From Candidatus Nomurabacteria bacterium (GTDB lineage: Bacteria > Patescibacteriota > Minisyncoccia > Phycocordibacterales > UBA9973), in NCBI GenBank assembly GCA_031425235.1, contig JANPIZ010000004.1, positions 132,251 to 173,835 of the forward strand: a DNA stretch of 41,585 nt. Direction: 5' to 3'. Of the stretch, positions 15,867-37,019 are shown in pieces. The notes beneath the pieces were generated by a model. That model was not told where the DNA came from and did not search any database. It saw nothing but the letters and a program-made list of their open reading frames with translations. Made by a program: the position numbers and the translations under genes. Numbering within the stretch: position 1 is the stretch's first letter; each line of letters opens with the position of its first letter.

Positions 15867-16094
15867 ATGCCAAAGCTTCGTCGCGTGTCTGCGAAAAAAG
15901 TTATTCAGAAGTTAAAGAAAATTGGTTTTACAGAAACTCATCAGCGGGGAAGCCATCTATATTTAAAAAGTAACGATGGAATAAAAATAGTAACCATCCC
16001 TGTTCACGGCGCAAAAGATATCCCGATTGGAACTTTATATAATATCGTCGTCAGACAAGCTGGTTTATCTGTAGATGAATTTAATAACTTATAG
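15867..16094 (+). CDS. hicA: HicA-family mRNA interferase toxin
   Basis: GF...QRGSH...TIPVH..KDIPIGTL..I..QAG. Confidence 0.93.
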   Translation: MPKLRRVSAKKVIQKLKKIGFTETHQRGSHLYLKSNDGIKIVTIPVHGAKDIPIGTLYNIVVRQAGLSVDEFNNL

Positions 16095-16104
16095 AAAATT
16101 CTAA

Positions 16105-16174
16105 CAAACAAAAAACCGCCCTTCGTGTGCCGAAGGGCGGTTTTTTGTTTAAAGCCTCAAAGCTGGCGAAAGAA
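16105..16174. repeat. 70-bp exact direct repeat (contains bidirectional terminator), copy 1
   Basis: Identical to 16801-16870. aaacaaaaaaccgcccttcg-tgtgc-cgaagggcggttttttgttt. Confidence 0.95.
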
Positions 16175-16179
16175 ATTTA

Positions 16180-16443
16180 TTATGAATAAAGTTCACTATG
16201 ACTTCCTATAGCCATAAACTCAACGCAATCTTTTGAAATTTCTTCAAAGACAGCGCGAATATCTCCAGTAATATTTATACTTTTACAACCCTTCCATTCA
16301 CCATAAAGAGGGTGAATGTTTAAAAGTGGATTTGAGTTATCTTTAATAAAAAGCTCGAGTCGTTTTCCAAATTTATCCTGGATATTTTTTGGTTGTTTCT
16401 TGAACATCTTTTTAAATGTTCGCCCATAGCTTATGTATACCAT
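16180..16443 (-). CDS. RelE/YafQ-family toxin
   Basis: F.K..KK, HPLYGEWKG..SINITGDIR, IGSHSELY. Confidence 0.9.
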   Translation of the reverse strand: MVYISYGRTFKKMFKKQPKNIQDKFGKRLELFIKDNSNPLLNIHPLYGEWKGCKSINITGDIRAVFEEISKDCVEFMAIGSHSELYS

Positions 16444-16447
16444 ATTT

Positions 16448-16717
16448 TTATGATTCGAGAGATTTCATCATCTCATGAGCAGAGGAGAAAGGGCCAAAAT
16501 TTTTACCAGCTTTCCGCATAGCCCTCGTGTCTCGAATAGCGTCTTTCAAGAGATCGCTAGGCTCTAAAAGTGAAAAGGAAACAGTCTTAGAGCGAATAAG
16601 CTCTTTCAAAGAAGCACCCACAAGTGTTGAGAGAGAGAACCCTAAATCTTCAGCGACTTTACTAGCTTCCCGTTTTACTTTTGGATCTATTTTAATATTT
16701 AATATTGCTGTCTTCAT
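16448..16717 (-). CDS. RelB/DinJ-family antitoxin
   Basis: RHH-like NIKID..VK..A..VAEDLG.SLS and C-terminal GPFSSA.EM. Directly upstream of the toxin. Confidence 0.88.
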   Translation of the reverse strand: MKTAILNIKIDPKVKREASKVAEDLGFSLSTLVGASLKELIRSKTVSFSLLEPSDLLKDAIRDTRAMRKAGKNFGPFSSAHEMMKSLES

Positions 16718-16772: not shown

Positions 16773-16803
16773 AAAGTATATACTTTGTATAGATTAATGT
16801 CAA
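16773..16803 (-). promoter_or_regulatory. sigma70 promoter and palindromic operator of the TA operon
   Basis: TTGACA(16803-16798)-17 bp-TATACT(16780-16775). Palindrome aaagtatatacttt at 16773-16786. Confidence 0.75.
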
Positions 16804-16870
16804 ACAAAAAACCGCCCTTCGTGTGCCGAAGGGCGGTTTTTTGTTTAAAGCCTCAAAGCTGGCGAAAGAA
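16801..16870. terminator. 70-bp repeat copy 2; likely terminator of the minus-strand island transcript
   Basis: GC-rich stem followed by a U-tract on both strands. Confidence 0.85.
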
Positions 16871-17070: not shown

Positions 17071-17075
17071 ATATA

Positions 17076-17184
17076 ATCCCAATGAATTTATAACCTAAAT
17101 TACAAACTCAACAAGGATGCCCCGACATAAATCGTCGGGGCAAAATCTCGATTAACCCTTGCGCCCGAGTACCATTCGGGACTT
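17076..17184 (-). ncRNA. Intergenic RNA module A, copy 1
   Basis: AAGU[stem]CGCAAGGGUUAAUCGAG-AUUUUGCC[stem]GGCAUCCUUGUUGA[stem]UCAUUGGGAU. Confidence 0.75.
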
Positions 17185-17242: not shown

Positions 17243-17983
17243 TCAAAAAGTGACTTCGATTCCATGCGCAGACATTAAGTATGCGAATGAGACTTTTGCC
17301 AGGTCTTCCCTGGCATTTCGTTCGAGCTCGTTCTTCTCGAAATCTTTTTGTTGCGCTGCCTCTTGCGCAGATTTTTCCTCCCTCTCAACTCGAGTTGCCT
17401 CGAGGTAAGTGGGAGTTTGCTCCCACGACTCCTGCAGGTTTGTCTCCACAAAACGCAGTGGGTAGGCAGAAAACGGATCCTGCCATCCGATTACCGGCAA
17501 CGCTTCCCCGTTGCTTTCAAATCTTCTCACCAAGCCCATAATGGACTTGAAGAGAACGGGTGGCAACTCCGAAGGAGTTGCGTTAAGGTTGACTACTAAT
17601 TTCTTAGCAATCTTCTGAATTTTTTCAACTCCTTTGACTTGGACCAAGGTGCCCCAAGCAAAAAGCTTCTCGAACTTGGATTTAATTTCCGGCAACTGGG
17701 CCGGAAACTCTTCATCCCACTTTGGCTCGTCGCCGAGCCAAATCTCGAGGTCCCCACTTGGTTGGAGAACCAAGTGAGTTTTGAACTTTCTCCCCAAATT
17801 CTTGGGGTAAAATTCAAGTGACCCATTATATTTCGAAAATTTAAAGGGGGGTTTTAAGCCCGACCCTTTCAAATTTCCACTCCACTCACTGAGTGGATAA
17901 AGGAATTTGATTCTTTCGCCTTCCGAAGGCGATGAAATTAAATTTTCCGGAACCACAACGAAAGTCTTTATAACTGCTATCAT
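17243..17983 (-). CDS. Hypothetical protein (island ORF5)
   Basis: 246-aa ORF with SD AGGAGAAAAGG-ATG. No recognisable family. Confidence 0.8.
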   Translation of the reverse strand: MIAVIKTFVVVPENLISSPSEGERIKFLYPLSEWSGNLKGSGLKPPFKFSKYNGSLEFYPKNLGRKFKTHLVLQPSGDLEIWLGDEPKWDEEFPAQLPEIKSKFEKLFAWGTLVQVKGVEKIQKIAKKLVVNLNATPSELPPVLFKSIMGLVRRFESNGEALPVIGWQDPFSAYPLRFVETNLQESWEQTPTYLEATRVEREEKSAQEAAQQKDFEKNELERNAREDLAKVSFAYLMSAHGIEVTF

Positions 17984-18158
17984 CCTTTTCTCCTATACTC
18001 TGCCTGCCGTAACGGTTCAGGTCTTACGAATATTTTTCTATTTGCCGGATTGAACATGATCCGTGCTTGCAACATGGCTGGTTTAAAATACAAAGCGGGC
18101 ATTAGCCAGGCTCGGTATTAGGTTCAGCTCAACCTGTATCTTTAATTTTTTTGGGTTT

Positions 18159-18286
18159 TTAACCCTATGAATTTACAAATTCCTAGATAGAGTTTGATAC
18201 TCTATCTAATATAAATTTATAAACTCAATAAGATGTAGAATTTTTGCTTTCACGAAAATTCTACAAAACTTTAGATTAACCCTTGT
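18159..18286 (-). ncRNA. Intergenic RNA module A, copy 2
   Basis: CAAGGGUUAAUC..UUUUG[stem, GAAA loop]CAUCUUAUUGA[extended stem]UCAUAGGGUUAA. Confidence 0.7.
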
Positions 18287-18523
18287 CTTATCTGTACTGT
18301 AACGTCAGCACAAAACGGTAGTCCTAATTTTTATTTGCCGGACTTAACTGAGACAAAGCACATTAATTACATAATTCTGTTATCACAACAGTACTATGCC
18401 CAAGATAATCCTTTTTTACCGTTACATTCCGGTCAACCTCTTTAGTCTTTTATGCAGGTTGCTGATTATTTTGATATCCCCCAGTCTGACTGTGCGCTGG
18501 GGTGAGACAGGAAAACTGTTATT

Positions 18524-18979
18524 TTATTGAACCTTTTCCGATAACTTTCTCGCTTTTCTTTTTAAGCGTGTTTTGAAACGCTTAACTTCTGAACGCGAAA
18601 GTTTTCTGGATAAGTAGTATTCATCTTTATTTTCCCAAATAAGATTTTTAACTACTGCTTCTAAAGGATCAACGAAATGAACATGCTTTGAAATCATTTT
18701 CCCAAAGACGCAAGACCACAGGTAGTGATACTGGTCTTTTTGGACTTCAAAGATTTTTTTTCCATTTAACACAGCGAAGTAAGCTTCCCAATGCCAAGTG
18801 CTAAAAGCTACTTGATTTGGACCTACTTCATGCTGACCTATCACCTCTAACCATTCACTTTCCTCAAAAACTTCTTGAGGAAAAAGTATCATGGTTGAAG
18901 GAGCTCCGACCCATGGTCTGGGTCTGATATAGATCAGCAACGGAGACTGTGTCTCGTTTCGGATTGTCTTTATTTCCAT
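18524..18979 (-). CDS. Hypothetical protein (island ORF4)
   Basis: ORF with GGAGAG SD before the ATG at 18979. Basic C-terminus. Confidence 0.7.
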   Translation of the reverse strand: MEIKTIRNETQSPLLIYIRPRPWVGAPSTMILFPQEVFEESEWLEVIGQHEVGPNQVAFSTWHWEAYFAVLNGKKIFEVQKDQYHYLWSCVFGKMISKHVHFVDPLEAVVKNLIWENKDEYYLSRKLSRSEVKRFKTRLKRKARKLSEKVQ

Positions 18980-19107
18980 AAAGCTCTCCAATCACCTCAG
19001 GCTACTCACAACTAAAATAAAGTTGTGCAAGGATTGTGTGATCTAGTCCACACTTAGCGAAGTTCTTGCATTTCTACAACAACAATCCTTATGTCCGTAA
19101 TGGTGAC

Positions 19108-19218
19108 CAATTTCCAAAATACTAGTCGCGTACTACTATTCTGGAAAAAGGTGCCGTCTTTTAAAATAGACGGCAAAATTTTATATAACCCATTCCCGAG
19201 TAACCAACCTCGGGACTT
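19108..19218 (-). ncRNA. Intergenic RNA module A, copy 3 (divergent)
   Basis: AAGU[CCCGAG..CUCGGG]AAUGGGUUAU..UUUUGCCGUC..GACGGCACCUUU[stem]. Confidence 0.6.
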
Positions 19219-19260
19219 TTTGGTTTTAAGAGTTCGCACTCAGGATAACCAAAAACCTTT
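19195..19260 (-). ncRNA. Intergenic RNA module B, copy 2
   Basis: Same hairpin with GAGU-GCGA-ACUC (GNRA loop kept, U-G to U-A change). Confidence 0.8.
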
Positions 19261-19265
19261 TTAAC

Positions 19266-19751
19266 TTATTCTAAACTTTCGTCTAAGAGTTTTTTAAACT
19301 CTTCGACAAGTTTTTTAGCTTCGGAATCTGTCGCGATATTCGCGTAGATTCCTCCACCATGTGCGCAGTCGCACTGCCCTTCGTGAACCCACGAAGGAAT
19401 TGGCAGTTGGACTAAATTTTCAGTCGTTTCAAAAGTTTCCTTTGGAAACTTTTGAAGAATTTTGTTTTTTGTCTTGTCCTCGAGGTGGATACCTCGAAAG
19501 TAAGATTCGTTTGGGCATTCATCTGCCCAAACACTTTTTATTACCCGCGTGGCTTCCTTCGCCACGCAGTAATATTCAAACCTCACCTCGACTGCAGGTG
19601 AGGTTTTATTTTTTACTTCTTCGGGAATAAACCCGAGAAGTTCTTTAATTTTTTCCAAACCAGTAACTCTGATTTGGAATTTTTTTTCTGCAAACATTTT
19701 TTGAGCTTCGGCGCTCATGGCGCCAAGCCCGCTTATTAATAAATTTTCCAT
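19266..19751 (-). CDS. Hypothetical protein (island ORF3)
   Basis: 161-aa ORF with SD AGGAGGAGAAA-ATG. H..QCDCAH possible metal site. Confidence 0.8.
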   Translation of the reverse strand: MENLLISGLGAMSAEAQKMFAEKKFQIRVTGLEKIKELLGFIPEEVKNKTSPAVEVRFEYYCVAKEATRVIKSVWADECPNESYFRGIHLEDKTKNKILQKFPKETFETTENLVQLPIPSWVHEGQCDCAHGGGIYANIATDSEAKKLVEEFKKLLDESLE

Positions 19752-19828
19752 TTTCTCCTCCTAAACCTCATCTGTTGCTTGCAAATTCGCCAAAAGGCAT
19801 GTGAACCAGTCAAGTGTCCTGAAGTTTT

Positions 19829-19936
19829 TTAACCCTATGAAACCACAAAAATAATTTATGATTTCAACAAGGATGCCGAATCAAAAGACTCGGCAAAAAC
19901 TCGATTAACCCTTGCGCCAGTAAACCACACTGACTT
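19829..19936 (-). ncRNA. Intergenic RNA module A, copy 4
   Basis: AAGU[CAGU..ACUG]GCGCAAGGGUUAAUCGAGUUUUUGCCGA..UCGGCAUCCUUGUUGAAA..UUUCAUAGGGUUAA. Confidence 0.75.
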
Positions 19937-19976
19937 GTTGTTGACCCATCCACAACCAGGTTTTTTGCTCAAACGA

Positions 19977-21164
19977 TTATAAAAATCGTTTGAGCAAATT
20001 TTTCTCGAGAATTTCGAGAATTTTTTCCACGGTGAGTGTGGAATTGGTTCCCTGAGGGGAACCTTTTATGTTGGGTTGCCCACCCCAACCCGGTTCAAGC
20101 TGATTCAACTCAGCTTGAACCTTTTCTAAATCCACGTAGCCAGCTTGATACTGACAAATCGTGAATTTCCGGTGAGGATCACCCTCACCAATCCGGAATT
20201 CCGGATTGAGGCAAATTACTATTGGGGCACATGAGTACCCCAATTGCGTAGCAAAGCGGTGAGTACTTACCACCACCGCTATTTGATACAGAAGCGGTGC
20301 TCCTGATCCTTTTCCTATTTCCTGGCACCAAACCTCGGTGCCAGGAATCCCACAATAGCTGCAAAAATTGTCTCTTCCGATAAGAGTTTCTTTGCAGCTG
20401 TCGCAGTCCACAATAGTGTATATTGTGGACTTAATTTTTTTTTCCTCGATCGCGCGGATCATCTCCGCACGCTCGGCTTCAACCCGAGCGCGATAGCCTT
20501 CCGGCTCGGCTCGGGTAAAAAGCCATTCCTCCATCCACCCAACGCGGGTGGAAAAAGGAACTTCGTGGTCCGAAATCGCGGCTGCAATAGCCGCGGTTTC
20601 CGGAAAATCATTTTTGTCCCACGGTTGTTTCGCCGTGGGAAGCAGTTTCGATTTCCATTCGCCGCACGCGAATTTATCCGCGGTGGCGATCATATCCACG
20701 CCAGTATCAAAAAGATACTGGGTGTCCTGGTCTTCCACACCGTGTTGCACGGTGCCGATGTTTGAACGAATGTTCAACACCGCCATCGCCCCGACGGAGT
20801 CGAGGTCGGGACGAACCGTCACTAAAGTCGCATCTTTCGGCGGAAGTTCCGCCGTCAGTGCGACTTCGATAGCCGCCACACTGGCGTCACCACCAGTGTG
20901 TTGGGGATCAATGTTCCCCAAGTTACAGCGCTCGGCTAGCGCTGCAATAGTTACCTCAATCCCAAGCACGGGATGAGGTGTTATCTCTCCGCTTTCGACG
21001 GAGAGATGTGATCCACACATTTCGCAAATTGCGACATGTGTGGAAATTGTTTCCCAAGCATTACCACATACGCAGCGGTAATCAGCTCGAAAAATTTTAT
21101 TGTTTTGTTCCACTGCTTGCGGAACTTTTTTTGGATCCCTTGGATCCAAAGTTTTGAATTTCAT
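19977..21164 (-). CDS. Putative DHH-like phosphoesterase with two zinc-ribbon inserts (island ORF2)
   Basis: NIDPQH, RPDLDSVGA, C-terminal GWGG...GSP. CxC..CxxC and CxxC..CxxC clusters. SD AGGAGAAAAA-ATG. Confidence 0.6.
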   Translation of the reverse strand: MKFKTLDPRDPKKVPQAVEQNNKIFRADYRCVCGNAWETISTHVAICEMCGSHLSVESGEITPHPVLGIEVTIAALAERCNLGNIDPQHTGGDASVAAIEVALTAELPPKDATLVTVRPDLDSVGAMAVLNIRSNIGTVQHGVEDQDTQYLFDTGVDMIATADKFACGEWKSKLLPTAKQPWDKNDFPETAAIAAAISDHEVPFSTRVGWMEEWLFTRAEPEGYRARVEAERAEMIRAIEEKKIKSTIYTIVDCDSCKETLIGRDNFCSYCGIPGTEVWCQEIGKGSGAPLLYQIAVVVSTHRFATQLGYSCAPIVICLNPEFRIGEGDPHRKFTICQYQAGYVDLEKVQAELNQLEPGWGGQPNIKGSPQGTNSTLTVEKILEILEKNLLKRFL

Positions 21165-21188
21165 TTTTTCTCCTATTCACTTCTGTAT

Positions 21189-21233
21189 CTTGTTTGCTCG
21201 CTTATTCAGCATATGAGCAAATCTTGTGTCCGG
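21189..21233 (-). ncRNA. Pre-SD RNA module D upstream of ORF2
   Basis: CCGGACACAAGA-UUUGCUC-AUAU-GCU..AGC-GAGCAAA-CAAG. 21-nt core identical to 21661-21681. Confidence 0.75.
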
Positions 21234-21312
21234 TGAAATTTTTTGGTTATTGACCTCCAACCCCAGGAATCTTCTTATTTATATGCCGGAAAAGATACAA
21301 ATCCGGAAAAAA

Positions 21313-21612
21313 TTAATACTGTCCGTTTTGGTTGCAAACTTCGCAACCAAAACCTTCGCAGTTTGGACAAAGTAAATCGTCCTCACTGCGCGGCATAAAC
21401 ACTGGGGGTGTTGATTCCACCCCCAATTGCTCGGTGTTTATGACGCAAACCATAAACTCCCCCATTCCGTTTTCTCCGCGATCAATATAATTGATCGCAA
21501 TGATTTTTTCCTTTTGCGGGACTTTTTCAAGTGCAGCAAAAAAACATTCCTTTATGGAGTCACTTTGCGTCTTCGAGACGCCTGTGTATACTCCAAAATT
21601 TTTATTTTTCAT
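21313..21612 (-). CDS. Small protein with C-terminal CxxCxGxGCxxC zinc finger (island ORF1)
   Basis: ATG at 21612 with SD GAGGAGAAAT. CPNCEGFGCEVC. Confidence 0.75.
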   Translation of the reverse strand: MKNKNFGVYTGVSKTQSDSIKECFFAALEKVPQKEKIIAINYIDRGENGMGEFMVCVINTEQLGVESTPPVFMPRSEDDLLCPNCEGFGCEVCNQNGQY

Positions 21613-21637
21613 ATTTCTCCTCACTCTCCTCTGTGTG

Positions 21638-21681
21638 CTTGTCTGCTCGCCGTTAGGCAAATGAGCAAATCTTGTGTCCGG
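21638..21681 (-). ncRNA. Pre-SD RNA module D upstream of ORF1
   Basis: CCGGACACAAGA-UUUGCUC-AUUU-GCC..GGC-GAGCAGA-CAAG. Confidence 0.75.
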
Positions 21682-22267
21682 AAAGTTTTAAAAACTACTC
21701 GCTTGTAGCGATGAGGTAAAATGCAAGATTTTTACATCCTACCTTCTCACTACAAGTGAGAAGATTAGAGAAATCTATTTTGTTGTCAAAGTAATTATCC
21801 TTACCGCAAAACAAGTCTCTCTCCTTTTTGCGCTCCTCGTAAAGCTCCTCACTTCATTCGGCTCCTTCGTAAAGATAAATTGTTGTCTCTCTCCTTCGCC
21901 CCGCCCTGAATTTTTTGAAAAATTCAGGGCGGAGTAAATAAAGACATTTCAGATCACAAATGAGGGTTAAGCATTTCTGATCTGCCTATGTCTCGGCAAT
22001 TCTAAGTTTTCACTTGGATTACCTCGCCACGGTTGTGAATGTTTGTGTGTTTTTTAGCTTCGGTTTGCGGCGTCCACTAAAATTCACTATTCACGGTGCA
22101 AACAGATTTTAAAAGATTGTCTCTCATCCCACTCTCTCCTTTTTCCTAGCTTACCGGCCTAGGTGCCTTCCTTCCCTATGTGTTCTAAGTATTGAACCTT
22201 ATAGAGCGATCAGAGGTGGGAACCAATCTATTGAAATCTCCTTGAATGAACTCTCTCCTTATGTTCT
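21682..22267 (-). ncRNA. Long structured leader / candidate large ncRNA
   Basis: No ORF of 60 aa or more across about 590 nt after a consensus promoter. Multiple hairpins (21743-21763, 21901-21932, 21942-21993). Four exact AAGGAGAGAG repeats. Confidence 0.7.
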
Positions 22268-22273
22268 GGATAT

Positions 22274-22302
22274 AGTATAGCATAATTAAACTGTTTTGTC
22301 AA
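22274..22302 (-). promoter_or_regulatory. sigma70 promoter driving the island
   Basis: TTGACA(22302-22297)-17 bp-TATACT(22279-22274) with extended -10 TG. Confidence 0.85.
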
Positions 22303-22362: not shown

Positions 22363-22420
22363 TTATCCACATTGTCACATTTGCATGACAAAACAAAACA
22401 TACTATACTTAAGTATAGTA
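22363..22420. promoter_or_regulatory. DnaA box plus palindromes upstream of the TrmB gene
   Basis: TTATCCACA at 22363-22371, ttgtca-N8-tgacaa at 22372-22391, perfect 20-bp palindrome tactatacttaagtatagta at 22401-22420. Confidence 0.6.
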
Positions 22421-23181
22421 TGGAAGAAAATATTTTAATTCAAACCGGTCTTTCCGAGGAGCAAGCTCAAACATACCAAGCTTTACTTGAAAAAGGCCCA
22501 CAAAAAGCGAGTGACCTATCCAAATGGACAGGTATCAAGCGTGGGCTTATATATAAAGTCCTCGAACAGCTCGAATCCATGAGTTTGGTCTCCAAAACTG
22601 GTGGCCCAGGCACTGTGGCCACCTTCTCCCCCGCGCATCCGAGCCTGCTTCTGTCCAATATTGAAAGAAAAGAAAAAGAAATAGCTTTCAATAAAGAAAT
22701 GCTCCAAAGCTCCATAGGGTCACTTGCGTCAAAATACAACCTGATCATAGGCAAACCCAACATTCAATTCTTCGAAGGAGAAGAAGGGATGAAAAAAGTT
22801 CTCGACGACACTCTAAATGTTTCCACTGGTACTGAAATATATACATACGCTGATTTGGAAGCTATTTTAAAATACATTCCCGACATAAATGCATCATATT
22901 CAGATCGTAGAGAAAAATTAGGAATAAAGAAAAAAGGACTGTTGTTAGATAGTCCCCGGGCACGTGAAGTGATAAAAAATTACCACACAGAGACAACTGA
23001 TACAAAATTTATACCATATGGGGCTGCAGAACTTGAAACGGTAATGCAAATATACGAAAATAAAATTTCTTACATAACTCTAAAAGATAATTCAATGATT
23101 GGAATCATCATAGAAGACCCGCTCATTTATAAAATGCATAAGCTATTATTTGAACATGTCTGGAATATTACAAAAAATTAG
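22420..23181 (+). CDS. TrmB-family transcriptional regulator
   Basis: GLS..QA..Y.ALL..G wHTH, P.IQFFEG.EG, IYENKI. ATG at 22420. Confidence 0.9.
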   Translation: MEENILIQTGLSEEQAQTYQALLEKGPQKASDLSKWTGIKRGLIYKVLEQLESMSLVSKTGGPGTVATFSPAHPSLLLSNIERKEKEIAFNKEMLQSSIGSLASKYNLIIGKPNIQFFEGEEGMKKVLDDTLNVSTGTEIYTYADLEAILKYIPDINASYSDRREKLGIKKKGLLLDSPRAREVIKNYHTETTDTKFIPYGAAELETVMQIYENKISYITLKDNSMIGIIIEDPLIYKMHKLLFEHVWNITKN

Positions 23182-36086: not shown

Positions 36087-37019
36087 TTATCTTTTGCTAC
36101 GACTACGACTATGGTATTTTTTGTGAGTCTCCCGTAAATGTTTGTCAGTTACGTGGGTATATATTTGGGTGGTGCTGATGTTCGCATGCCCGAGCATTGC
36201 CTGGACTGAGCGCAGGTCAGCCCCGTTGCTCAGTAAGTCAGTGGCAAACATGTGTCGCATCACATGGGGAGTGACTTTTTTTGAAATCCCAGCCAGGGTA
36301 GCGTGTTGTTTCACGATGCGTTCGATTGATCTTTTTGTAAGCGCTTTCGGTATTTCTTTTTTCTTTTTAATTTTATTTTCAACTTGAATAAAGAGGGCGT
36401 CGCTCATGTCTTTGCGGGCTTTTAGGTACGCCCCGACAGAACGCTTGGCGTCTTCGGAGATAAACACCACGCGCACCTTACCACCCTTTCCACGAATCGA
36501 AAGCTCCTCGGAGTTTAAATCAATATCGGCCATTAAGGAACAAAGTTCGGACACACGAAGGCCAGTAGAAAATAAAAGTTCGAGGATGGCTCGATCGCGC
36601 AAGTCTTTGAGCTCAACTCCTTTTGGAGATTCTAAAAGCCGCTTGAGCTCAAGTGGAGTAATCAAATCGAGTGCTCGCTCATTCACTTTGGCGAGTTCGA
36701 TACGTTCAGGAGCCATCGACTTCACGTCTTGTCGTGCGAGATATTTCAAAAATGCTCGGAGAGCTATCAAATAGTAGTTCTGTGTTTTTTTTGAAAGTGT
36801 TGCCCCTGTAGCTCGATTATTACCTGTGCTTTGCCTGTTCAGCCACAAACGAAACTCGCGTACTGAGGTATCGGTAATGTCGCTCGGATGGTCGGTTTTA
36901 ATAAAATTTAAAAAACGAGTCAAATATCGATCATAATTTTCGACAGTATAGAGCGATCGCCCTTTTTCGATTTCAGTATGCTCGAGAAATTGGGTTTTGA
37001 GTTCTTTGAGCGATGCCAT
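36087..37019 (-). CDS. XerC/XerD-type tyrosine recombinase
   Basis: TGLRVSEL, GKGGKVR, H.MRH.FAT, LGH....TTQIYTH. Start ATG at 37019. Confidence 0.93.
   Translation of the reverse strand: MASLKELKTQFLEHTEIEKGRSLYTVENYDRYLTRFLNFIKTDHPSDITDTSVREFRLWLNRQSTGNNRATGATLSKKTQNYYLIALRAFLKYLARQDVKSMAPERIELAKVNERALDLITPLELKRLLESPKGVELKDLRDRAILELLFSTGLRVSELCSLMADIDLNSEELSIRGKGGKVRVVFISEDAKRSVGAYLKARKDMSDALFIQVENKIKKKKEIPKALTKRSIERIVKQHATLAGISKKVTPHVMRHMFATDLLSNGADLRSVQAMLGHANISTTQIYTHVTDKHLRETHKKYHSRSRSKR

Follow-up and report, generated by a model that had tools for sequence, protein, structure and literature searches.

A structured leader RNA and a structured spacer that recurs between the genes downstream of it are two undescribed RNA families in Patescibacteria, each with strong covariation support in the sequence alignments. 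We propose that the leader and the spacers probably form a single control system at the RNA level, because a near-invariant loop of the leader is complementary to a box in the spacers. In our best explanation, the loop pairs with the box and so brings about read-through or processing at successive spacers, a proposal that we hold tentatively, at somewhat less than an even chance. Some form of loop-box pairing is plausible, at roughly even odds; the pairing, the competition that it would enter and the read-through that would follow are what we infer from the elements described below. The locus lies in a window of 41,585 nucleotides (the whole stretch of DNA that was analysed) from a genome of 745,984 bp (746 kb) in 9 contigs with 38% G+C, here called G000, whose relatives are labelled Patescibacteria, Paceibacteria or 'Nomurabacteria' in public records. 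The head of the locus has these features:

22372-23181, + strand: TrmB-like regulator gene, divergent from the leader (Pfam PF01978, E = 1e-12)
22274-22302, - strand: leader promoter, made up of TTGACA, a 17-nt spacer and a TG-extended TATACT (score 11/12)
21775-22267, - strand: structured leader RNA of ~490 nt (homology, RNAalifold)
21942-21993, - strand: hairpin domain of the leader (fold and covariation)
21876-21939, - strand: lineage-specific 64-nt insertion after the hairpin, with a GC-rich hairpin and a purine motif (shared with G188 only)

We placed the 5' end of the leader from its promoter and its 3' end at 21775, where homology to G188 breaks off. The promoter is conserved in alignments A1 and A2, and 18 of 19 loci have the 11/12 hexamer pair, 15 with TATACT itself and 3 with a variant that differs from it at one base. 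In ~19 genomes of the genus the leader itself is conserved, with 70-86% identity, and a DNA search with it found matches in 28 of 212 genomes, some of them over the promoter part only. RNAalifold on 12 leader sequences gives 64 pairs, 27 of which show compensatory changes. A coding role was considered and rejected: the sole small ORF in the leader has its ATG start changed to CTG in most relatives, and compensatory changes support the fold. On these lines of evidence, and on the covariation of the hairpin described below, the leader is a structured RNA, not a coding region. It extends beyond the hairpin at 21942-21993, which in most relatives is followed by a further conserved domain. Comparison of the leader region with Rfam at E <= 10 returned chance miRNA and snoRNA matches only, and the whole window against Rfam 15 at gathering score returned four tRNAs only. 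We also rejected RNase P RNA and tmRNA as identities for the leader; in G000 these lie at C1:75381-75736 (99.9 bits) and C4:22171-22572 (113.8 bits), respectively.

The purine motif AGGAGAGAG, which resembles a ribosome-binding site, occurs four times in the leader (- strand, starts near 22258, 22139, 21894 and 21824); in the consensus fold one of the copies is paired to a CCCACCUCU stretch, and a second lies in a hairpin loop of the 3' domain. Short leader forms in L061 (G164) and L117 (G158) have the hairpin domain almost straight after the promoter, without the central domain. Two kinds of alternative 3' domain follow the hairpin in different genomes, and between G103 (L056) and G076 (L057) the switch from one to the other falls exactly at the last hairpin base. 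The alternative 3' domain opens with a short C-rich hairpin that is also complementary to the doubled box of the spacers. G172 has two leader hairpins (G172:C58:159-217 and G172:C57:23019-23074), each followed by spacer modules. The TrmB-like gene, whose true start is probably the ATG at 22420, stands upstream of the leader in the relatives' loci too. Between the leader promoter and this likely start lie a conserved TGTCA-N8-TGACA palindrome (22373-22390) and a perfect 24-bp palindrome (22399-22422), both of them candidate operators.

An earlier note on this DNA had described a - strand hairpin of three tiers at 21942-21993 with its apical loop at 21963-21971. Our folds confirm this structure, in which the loop is the 9-nt sequence CUUAACCCU. 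The 76 nt from 21930 to 22005 (- strand) fold with an MFE of -20 kcal/mol (z = -3.56), a value matched by 2 of 200 shuffles. Across 19 sequences, 96.4% of cells are paired and 9 of the 19 pairs show compensatory changes; none of 500 shuffles reaches any of these measures, and slid controls give 37-56% pairing. The G-U pairs of the hairpin assign the fold to the - strand, the same strand as that of the cassette ORFs. While the stems vary and covary, 49 of 51 hairpin homologues retain UAACCC as the core of the loop, a tally that combines 19/19, 2/3 outside that set, 2/2, and 26/27 metagenome loci (27 of the 41 matches of the metagenome pattern scan are true hairpins). Across the order sample, the relatives of G344, the genus sample and the metagenome pattern scan, the only loop variants are G344 and L148. 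Weak R1 matches in G354 and G244 were treated as false because they lack all other features of the leader.

Downstream of this conserved head, the set of genes is different in every genome compared, and in the relatives' loci a conserved M23 peptidase and a conserved 717-aa protein return 2 to 11 kb further on. In the window, the variable stretch alternates between cassettes and copies of a spacer module, scored in bits against R2, a covariance model of the module:

17243-21660, - strand: five co-oriented cassette ORFs (21313-21660, 19977-21164, 19266-19751, 18524-18991 and 17243-17983), with no family match
19830-19919, - strand: module 1, with box (19905-19912), P1, linker and P2 (74.4 bits)
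19105-19199, - strand: module 2, degenerate, with box GGGTTA at 19186-19191 (37.1 bits)
18160-18290, - strand: module 3, with box at 18276-18283 (53.3 bits)
17075-17166, - strand: module 4, with box at 17152-17159 (74.4 bits)

Each cassette has its own ribosome-binding site and ORF. The five proteins match nothing in Pfam, PADLOC, PHROGs or NCBIfam, and the five ORFs gave no tblastn match in the arrays of 18 relatives. Contigs from the DNA runs of one study, one of which is possibly the source of the window DNA, show no joints or variants.

Several observations concern single cassettes. The 395-aa cassette gene (19977-21164, - strand) has ~52% G+C, against 38% for the genome, and it has zinc-ribbon-like Cys pairs. 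The nearest Atlas clusters to this protein are viral hypothetical proteins at 0.89, which is under the 0.9 level, so that the viral likeness is a lead only. A 25-nt motif (72-96% identity) occurs at 19797-19821, 21209-21233 and 21657-21681, 0-50 nt before the start codons of three unrelated cassette ORFs, and may be a shared 5' UTR element. Further along, a 91-nt direct repeat (16084-16174 and 16780-16870; 89% identity), which holds a hairpin with a perfect 20-bp stem, flanks a gene for a YafQ/ParE-type toxin (16180-16443) together with its partner upstream (16448-16717). Within the repeat copy at 16780-16870 lies a second near-consensus promoter (16803-16775, - strand). This repeat-bracketed toxin unit looks like a cassette whose insertion doubled its terminator region.

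The spacer modules share a fixed order of parts. The first is a GGGUUA box, often doubled; ~10 nt further on comes P1, a GC-rich hairpin. A linker rich in C and U separates P1 from P2, an AU-rich hairpin, and on the 3' side an AUAGGG-type strand pairs back to the linker. P1 and P2 together, modelled on 20 modules, have 89.9% of cells paired and compensatory changes in 19 of 25 pairs, which none of 500 shuffles matches. In G000, R2 finds three matches, all inside the cassette array; the fourth, degenerate copy in the window was found when R2 was run on 335,690 bases of loci. That search gave 53 matches, 51 of them downstream of a leader and on the same strand, and R2 had no match in four TrmB loci without the hairpin. 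Module 4 is orthologous to the single module of G188. Against Rfam at E <= 1 the array gave nothing relevant, and the ordinary P2 corresponds to no ribozyme family. The relatives' loci gave DUF805b RNA (RF02914) twice and nothing else; both matches are above the gathering score (L062:2162-2196, + strand, and L061:10411-10445, - strand) and follow a spacer module by ~80 nt.

The linker has two possible partners within the module. One is the 5' half of the box region, in a helix with 86% of cells paired and one pair that switches between U-A (10) and C-G (6); the MFE folds of two window modules contain this helix. The linker also pairs, with covariation, with the 3' strand of P2. Since it pairs with both, the module would have two mutually exclusive folds. 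In the first of these, P1 is extended to an interrupted U-rich tract and looks like a terminator; a simple terminator scan flagged the P1 of three window modules, the tail again being an interrupted U-rich stretch.

In some relatives the place of P2 is taken by a putative ribozyme. A candidate type III hammerhead (Rfam RF00008) lies right after the box and P1 in G016 (L047:3885-3949, - strand), with 38.8 bits and E = 3.5e-7, which is under the Rfam gathering score of 48.5. On the sense strand of L128 (2 copies), L130, L145 and L148, hammerhead cores were recognised in the same place from the core motif and by eye, bringing the hammerhead-bearing modules in relatives to six, with a Rfam model score for G016 only. 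None of the four window modules has a hammerhead, and P2 in its standard form is a simple hairpin interrupted by an internal loop. Together with the G-U pairs on the sense strand, the hammerheads indicate that the spacers act as RNA. Their exact coincidence with the P2 place also favours a reading in which the same loop-box pairing serves RNA processing or stability. The spacers would then be cleavage points that cut the polycistron into cistrons, and the leader, whether in cis or after release as a stable RNA, would mark or protect box-bearing 3' ends or guide an RNase. Consistent with this, P1 and P2 flank the linker in the manner of hairpins that protect 3' and 5' ends, and the standard P2 may be an unrecognised cleavage element interchangeable with the hammerhead. 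Set against this reading are the G016 score below the gathering level, the identification of the other five hammerheads by core motif and eye, and an ordinary P2 that resembles no ribozyme family, and we judge it unlikely.

Recombination does shape the array, as a comparison of two relatives, G103 and G076, indicates. The same cassette stands at different array positions in the two, with its right end at the 3' end of a module; one module of G103 is a chimera made from two of those in G076; and the two loci are 97.8% identical up to the last hairpin base and unrelated beyond it. These breakpoints, like the difference in gene content between all genomes, would be expected if spacers and hairpin served as DNA recombination sites in an integron-like system, the modules playing the part of attC and the leader end that of attI. 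For a published motif found in one intergenic region after the next, the available portion of its report likewise considers an unusual attC a possibility (PMC5737381). The breakpoints are, however, in keeping with ordinary homologous exchange between conserved repeats, and the hammerheads point to spacers used as RNA. The conserved G-U pairs, moreover, point to an mRNA-sense fold, as the opposite strand would have A-C mismatches in their place, and loop and box are complementary, whereas crossover sites would be identical. No integrase lies beside the G000 array; the single tyrosine recombinase gene of G000 (PF00589, one match; window 36138-36662) is outside it, ~14 kb from the leader promoter. 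A role as recombination sites is thus highly unlikely in our estimate.

The connection between the leader and the spacers lies in the loop. The octamer AGGGTTAA occurs in the window five times on the - strand, between 17.1 and 19.9 kb (17152, 18159, 18276, 19829 and 19905), and once on the + strand, at 21963-21970, as the loop complement. Shuffles have a mean of 1.57 for these six occurrences, and 1 of 100 reaches six. Genome-wide the octamer is ordinary (24 matches on both strands of the assembly), and it clusters here because the octamers sit in a repeat family confined to the locus. The earlier note had counted five loop complements, all as the octamer of intergenic modules. The count stands, and the octamers at 17152, 18276 and 19905 are indeed 5' module boxes; those at 18159-18166 (module 3) and 19829-19836 (module 1) are instead carried by the 3' strand of P2, with their AGGG base-paired inside the module. 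The degenerate GGGTTA at 19186-19191, also reported there, was found as described.

In the wider data the box hexamer favours the sense strand. GGGTTA occurs downstream 20 times in sense against 4 in antisense in 26,876 nt, 54 against 12 times in the first 6 kb of 18 relatives (with a background of 0.13 per kb, and of 0.155 per kb per strand in G000), and 41 against 15 times in the metagenome set. The last tally is over the 28 loci that the loop filter let through, L132 among them, which matched by chance. An unbiased 6-mer test on the sense strand of the relatives' arrays ranks GGGTTA as third most enriched, with 54 occurrences against 14.4 expected and presence in 18 of 18 arrays. Conversely, when the 6-mers of the window leader are ranked by the enrichment of their complements, the top three are the three loop 6-mers. 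The predicted loop-box duplex has 8 bp and -10 kcal/mol, and it overlaps the box-linker helix. As for other partners of the box, we considered ribosomal RNA and rejected it: a 16S segment containing the box was not found in the G000 assembly.

These enrichments, with a loop and a box that are conserved, strand-specific parts of a system recurring across dozens of genomes, partly support the earlier proposal that the leader docks on the modules. Other observations tell against it, and they suit an explanation in which loop and box are each functional without touching and their complementarity is an inherited coincidence. The loop would bind a protein or another RNA, and the box would serve the module fold or a partner of its own. 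The pairing of the box 5' half with the linker, supported by covariation, partly explains the box in just this way. The box is absent or degenerate in 14 of 53 modules, and G158 keeps the loop beside two modules that both lack the box. Among the 151 genomes of the genus sample, and assuming the same draw of genomes for both counts, the hairpin is present in 17 and modules in 25; both occur in 16, the hairpin alone in 1 (on a short contig) and modules alone in 9. A relaxed search for the hairpin in five of the module-only genomes found none, including in G171 with its perfect boxes. Chance complementarity of 6-7 nt, furthermore, needs to have arisen only once, in an ancestor. On the side of contact, the UUA(A) part of the box is conserved though unpaired in the module model, the loop is the leader segment with the most enriched complement, and by eye alignment A2 shows no conserved internal complement to the loop within the leader.

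Covariation between loop and box, which the earlier note had named as a check, is not seen in the invariant core; since the loop core never varies, bar one locus, the comparison is nearly uninformative, and the conservation of the loop is the part that held. G344, from another family, has the loop UAACCA, and where other modules read GGGUUAA its single module reads UGGUUGG, so that the pairing would survive with two G-U pairs (n = 1, with the array mostly off the contig). L148, by contrast, has the loop UCAACCC beside boxes that are still GGGTTA, an uncompensated change that counts against covariation. At the flank, the base 5' of GGG and the 3' neighbour in the loop are complementary in 28 of 59 cases against 20.0 expected (p = 0.019); the metagenome loci alone do not replicate this trend (27 of 75, p = 0.31), and pooling gives 55 Watson-Crick of 134 boxes against 40.2 expected (p = 0.013), all of these p values being uncorrected for relatedness between genomes. 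Loop position N31 and the base after the box show no pattern. Weighing both sides, we consider coincidence without contact a serious contender, though on the unlikely side.

We therefore return to loop-box pairing at successive spacers as the preferred reading, for which the presence of modules in 16 of the 17 hairpin-bearing genomes also speaks; it can be set out as a sequence of steps. At the head of the strain-variable cassette array, the ~490-nt leader would be transcribed from its strong promoter, under probable regulation by the TrmB-like neighbour. Each cassette would end in an RNA spacer with a single-stranded GGGUUA box, P1, linker and P2. As a spacer is made, the UAACCC core of the leader loop would pair with its box on the same transcript, in competition with the short helix between the box 5' half and the linker. 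Left to itself, that helix would extend P1 to the U-rich tract, making termination or a stable 3' end more likely; through this competition, leader-started transcripts would read through, or be processed at, one spacer after another. Along the ~5.1 kb of - strand from the leader promoter to the toxin-antitoxin cassette there is no promoter scoring at least 10/12, and promoters of this quality are sparse in the relatives' arrays, so the cassettes probably depend on read-through from the leader. As a counterpoint, P1 may terminate, or not, regardless of the box.

A stronger form of the proposal would make the locus a bacterial docking-site/selector system, in which the invariant loop pairs in turn with the GGGUUA of each spacer and only leader-bearing transcripts are licensed for read-through or correct processing there; we regard this as possible but doubtful. 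With one loop facing several boxes, docking at one module at a time, as the earlier note had it, is a fair description if pairing occurs. The further suggestion made there, that docking selects one cassette exclusively or causes skipping or a splicing-like joining of leader and module, draws on the geometry of one loop and many boxes only, and we found no sign in its support. No intron, splice or ligation features were found: the window holds no group I or II intron at Rfam gathering score, and the array and leader region hold no intron or ribozyme family at E <= 1. Nothing points to EBS/IBS-type splicing. The cassettes, besides, each have their own ribosome-binding site and ORF. We consider exclusive choice or skipping most improbable, and the anatomy of the spacers is a better match for control that acts on termination or processing at each of them.

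Several known systems share parts of this design. In pT181, pIP501 and pCF10 Anti-Q, antisense RNAs attenuate transcription through kissing loops, and the regulators are countertranscripts acting on one leader. The proposed mechanism is similar in that a short contact between a loop and a single strand would choose between folds beside a terminator hairpin. It differs in that the loop lies upstream on the same transcript, would act at several spacers and would favour read-through, not termination. Phage HK022 put, Bacillus EAR and LoaP-dependent leaders are RNAs of processive antitermination, which act on RNA polymerase or a NusG paralogue and are not known to need a complementary site at each terminator. 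Here too, a structured RNA heads a long operon and transcription would pass internal terminators; the leader has no Rfam match to such RNAs, and its neighbour is a TrmB-like regulator, not a NusG paralogue. In the exon-6 cluster of Dscam, one docking site is complementary to selectors before the variable units, with one pairing at a time. The locus likewise has one conserved sequence complementary to an element at many variable units, although Dscam is a case of eukaryotic splicing and nothing here indicates splicing or exclusive choice. The spacers differ, finally, from the hammerhead of Rfam RF00008, as the window modules have a plain P2 and the hammerhead core appears only in modules of relatives.

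A further comparison is with integrons. An attC site is a single imperfect bottom-strand hairpin whose two ends carry inverse core sites. The spacers have two hairpins and a box, with G-U pairs on the sense strand, and their ends are direct copies, not inverse; by eye they contain no attC-type inverse core sites, and Rfam matches them to neither DUF1874 nor another family. Weinberg et al. 2017 (PMC5737381) describe, in the portion of that report available here, a DUF1874 motif in consecutive intergenic regions. Going by that portion, this is the closest published arrangement that we found: as in integron arrays and DUF1874 runs, variable ORFs alternate with a repeat whose structure is conserved more than its sequence, and neither the DUF1874 run nor the G000 array has an adjoining integrase. 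The sense-strand fold with G-U pairs and the combination of two hairpins with a box set the spacers apart from attC and from DUF1874 as described there.

The locus belongs to none of the families tested, and searches of the literature on Patescibacteria integrons, CPR structured RNAs, hammerheads and processive antitermination, supplements aside, gave no description of the system. By analogy, it would resemble RNA-controlled attenuation and antitermination most in the way it works, and docking-site/selector systems in its geometry. The hammerhead spacers would give self-cleaving ribozymes a defined and testable genomic role, the punctuation of cassette arrays. If the loop-box contact is real, a cis-encoded RNA loop would for the first time be seen to serve many sites along its own operon, and horizontally acquired genes would be tied to host control in a new way. 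If the docking-site/selector system is true, a CPR cell with a tiny genome would run ever-changing cassettes from one regulated promoter. The locus also gives a way into the question of how CPR bacteria arrange the most variable of their genes and bring them to expression.
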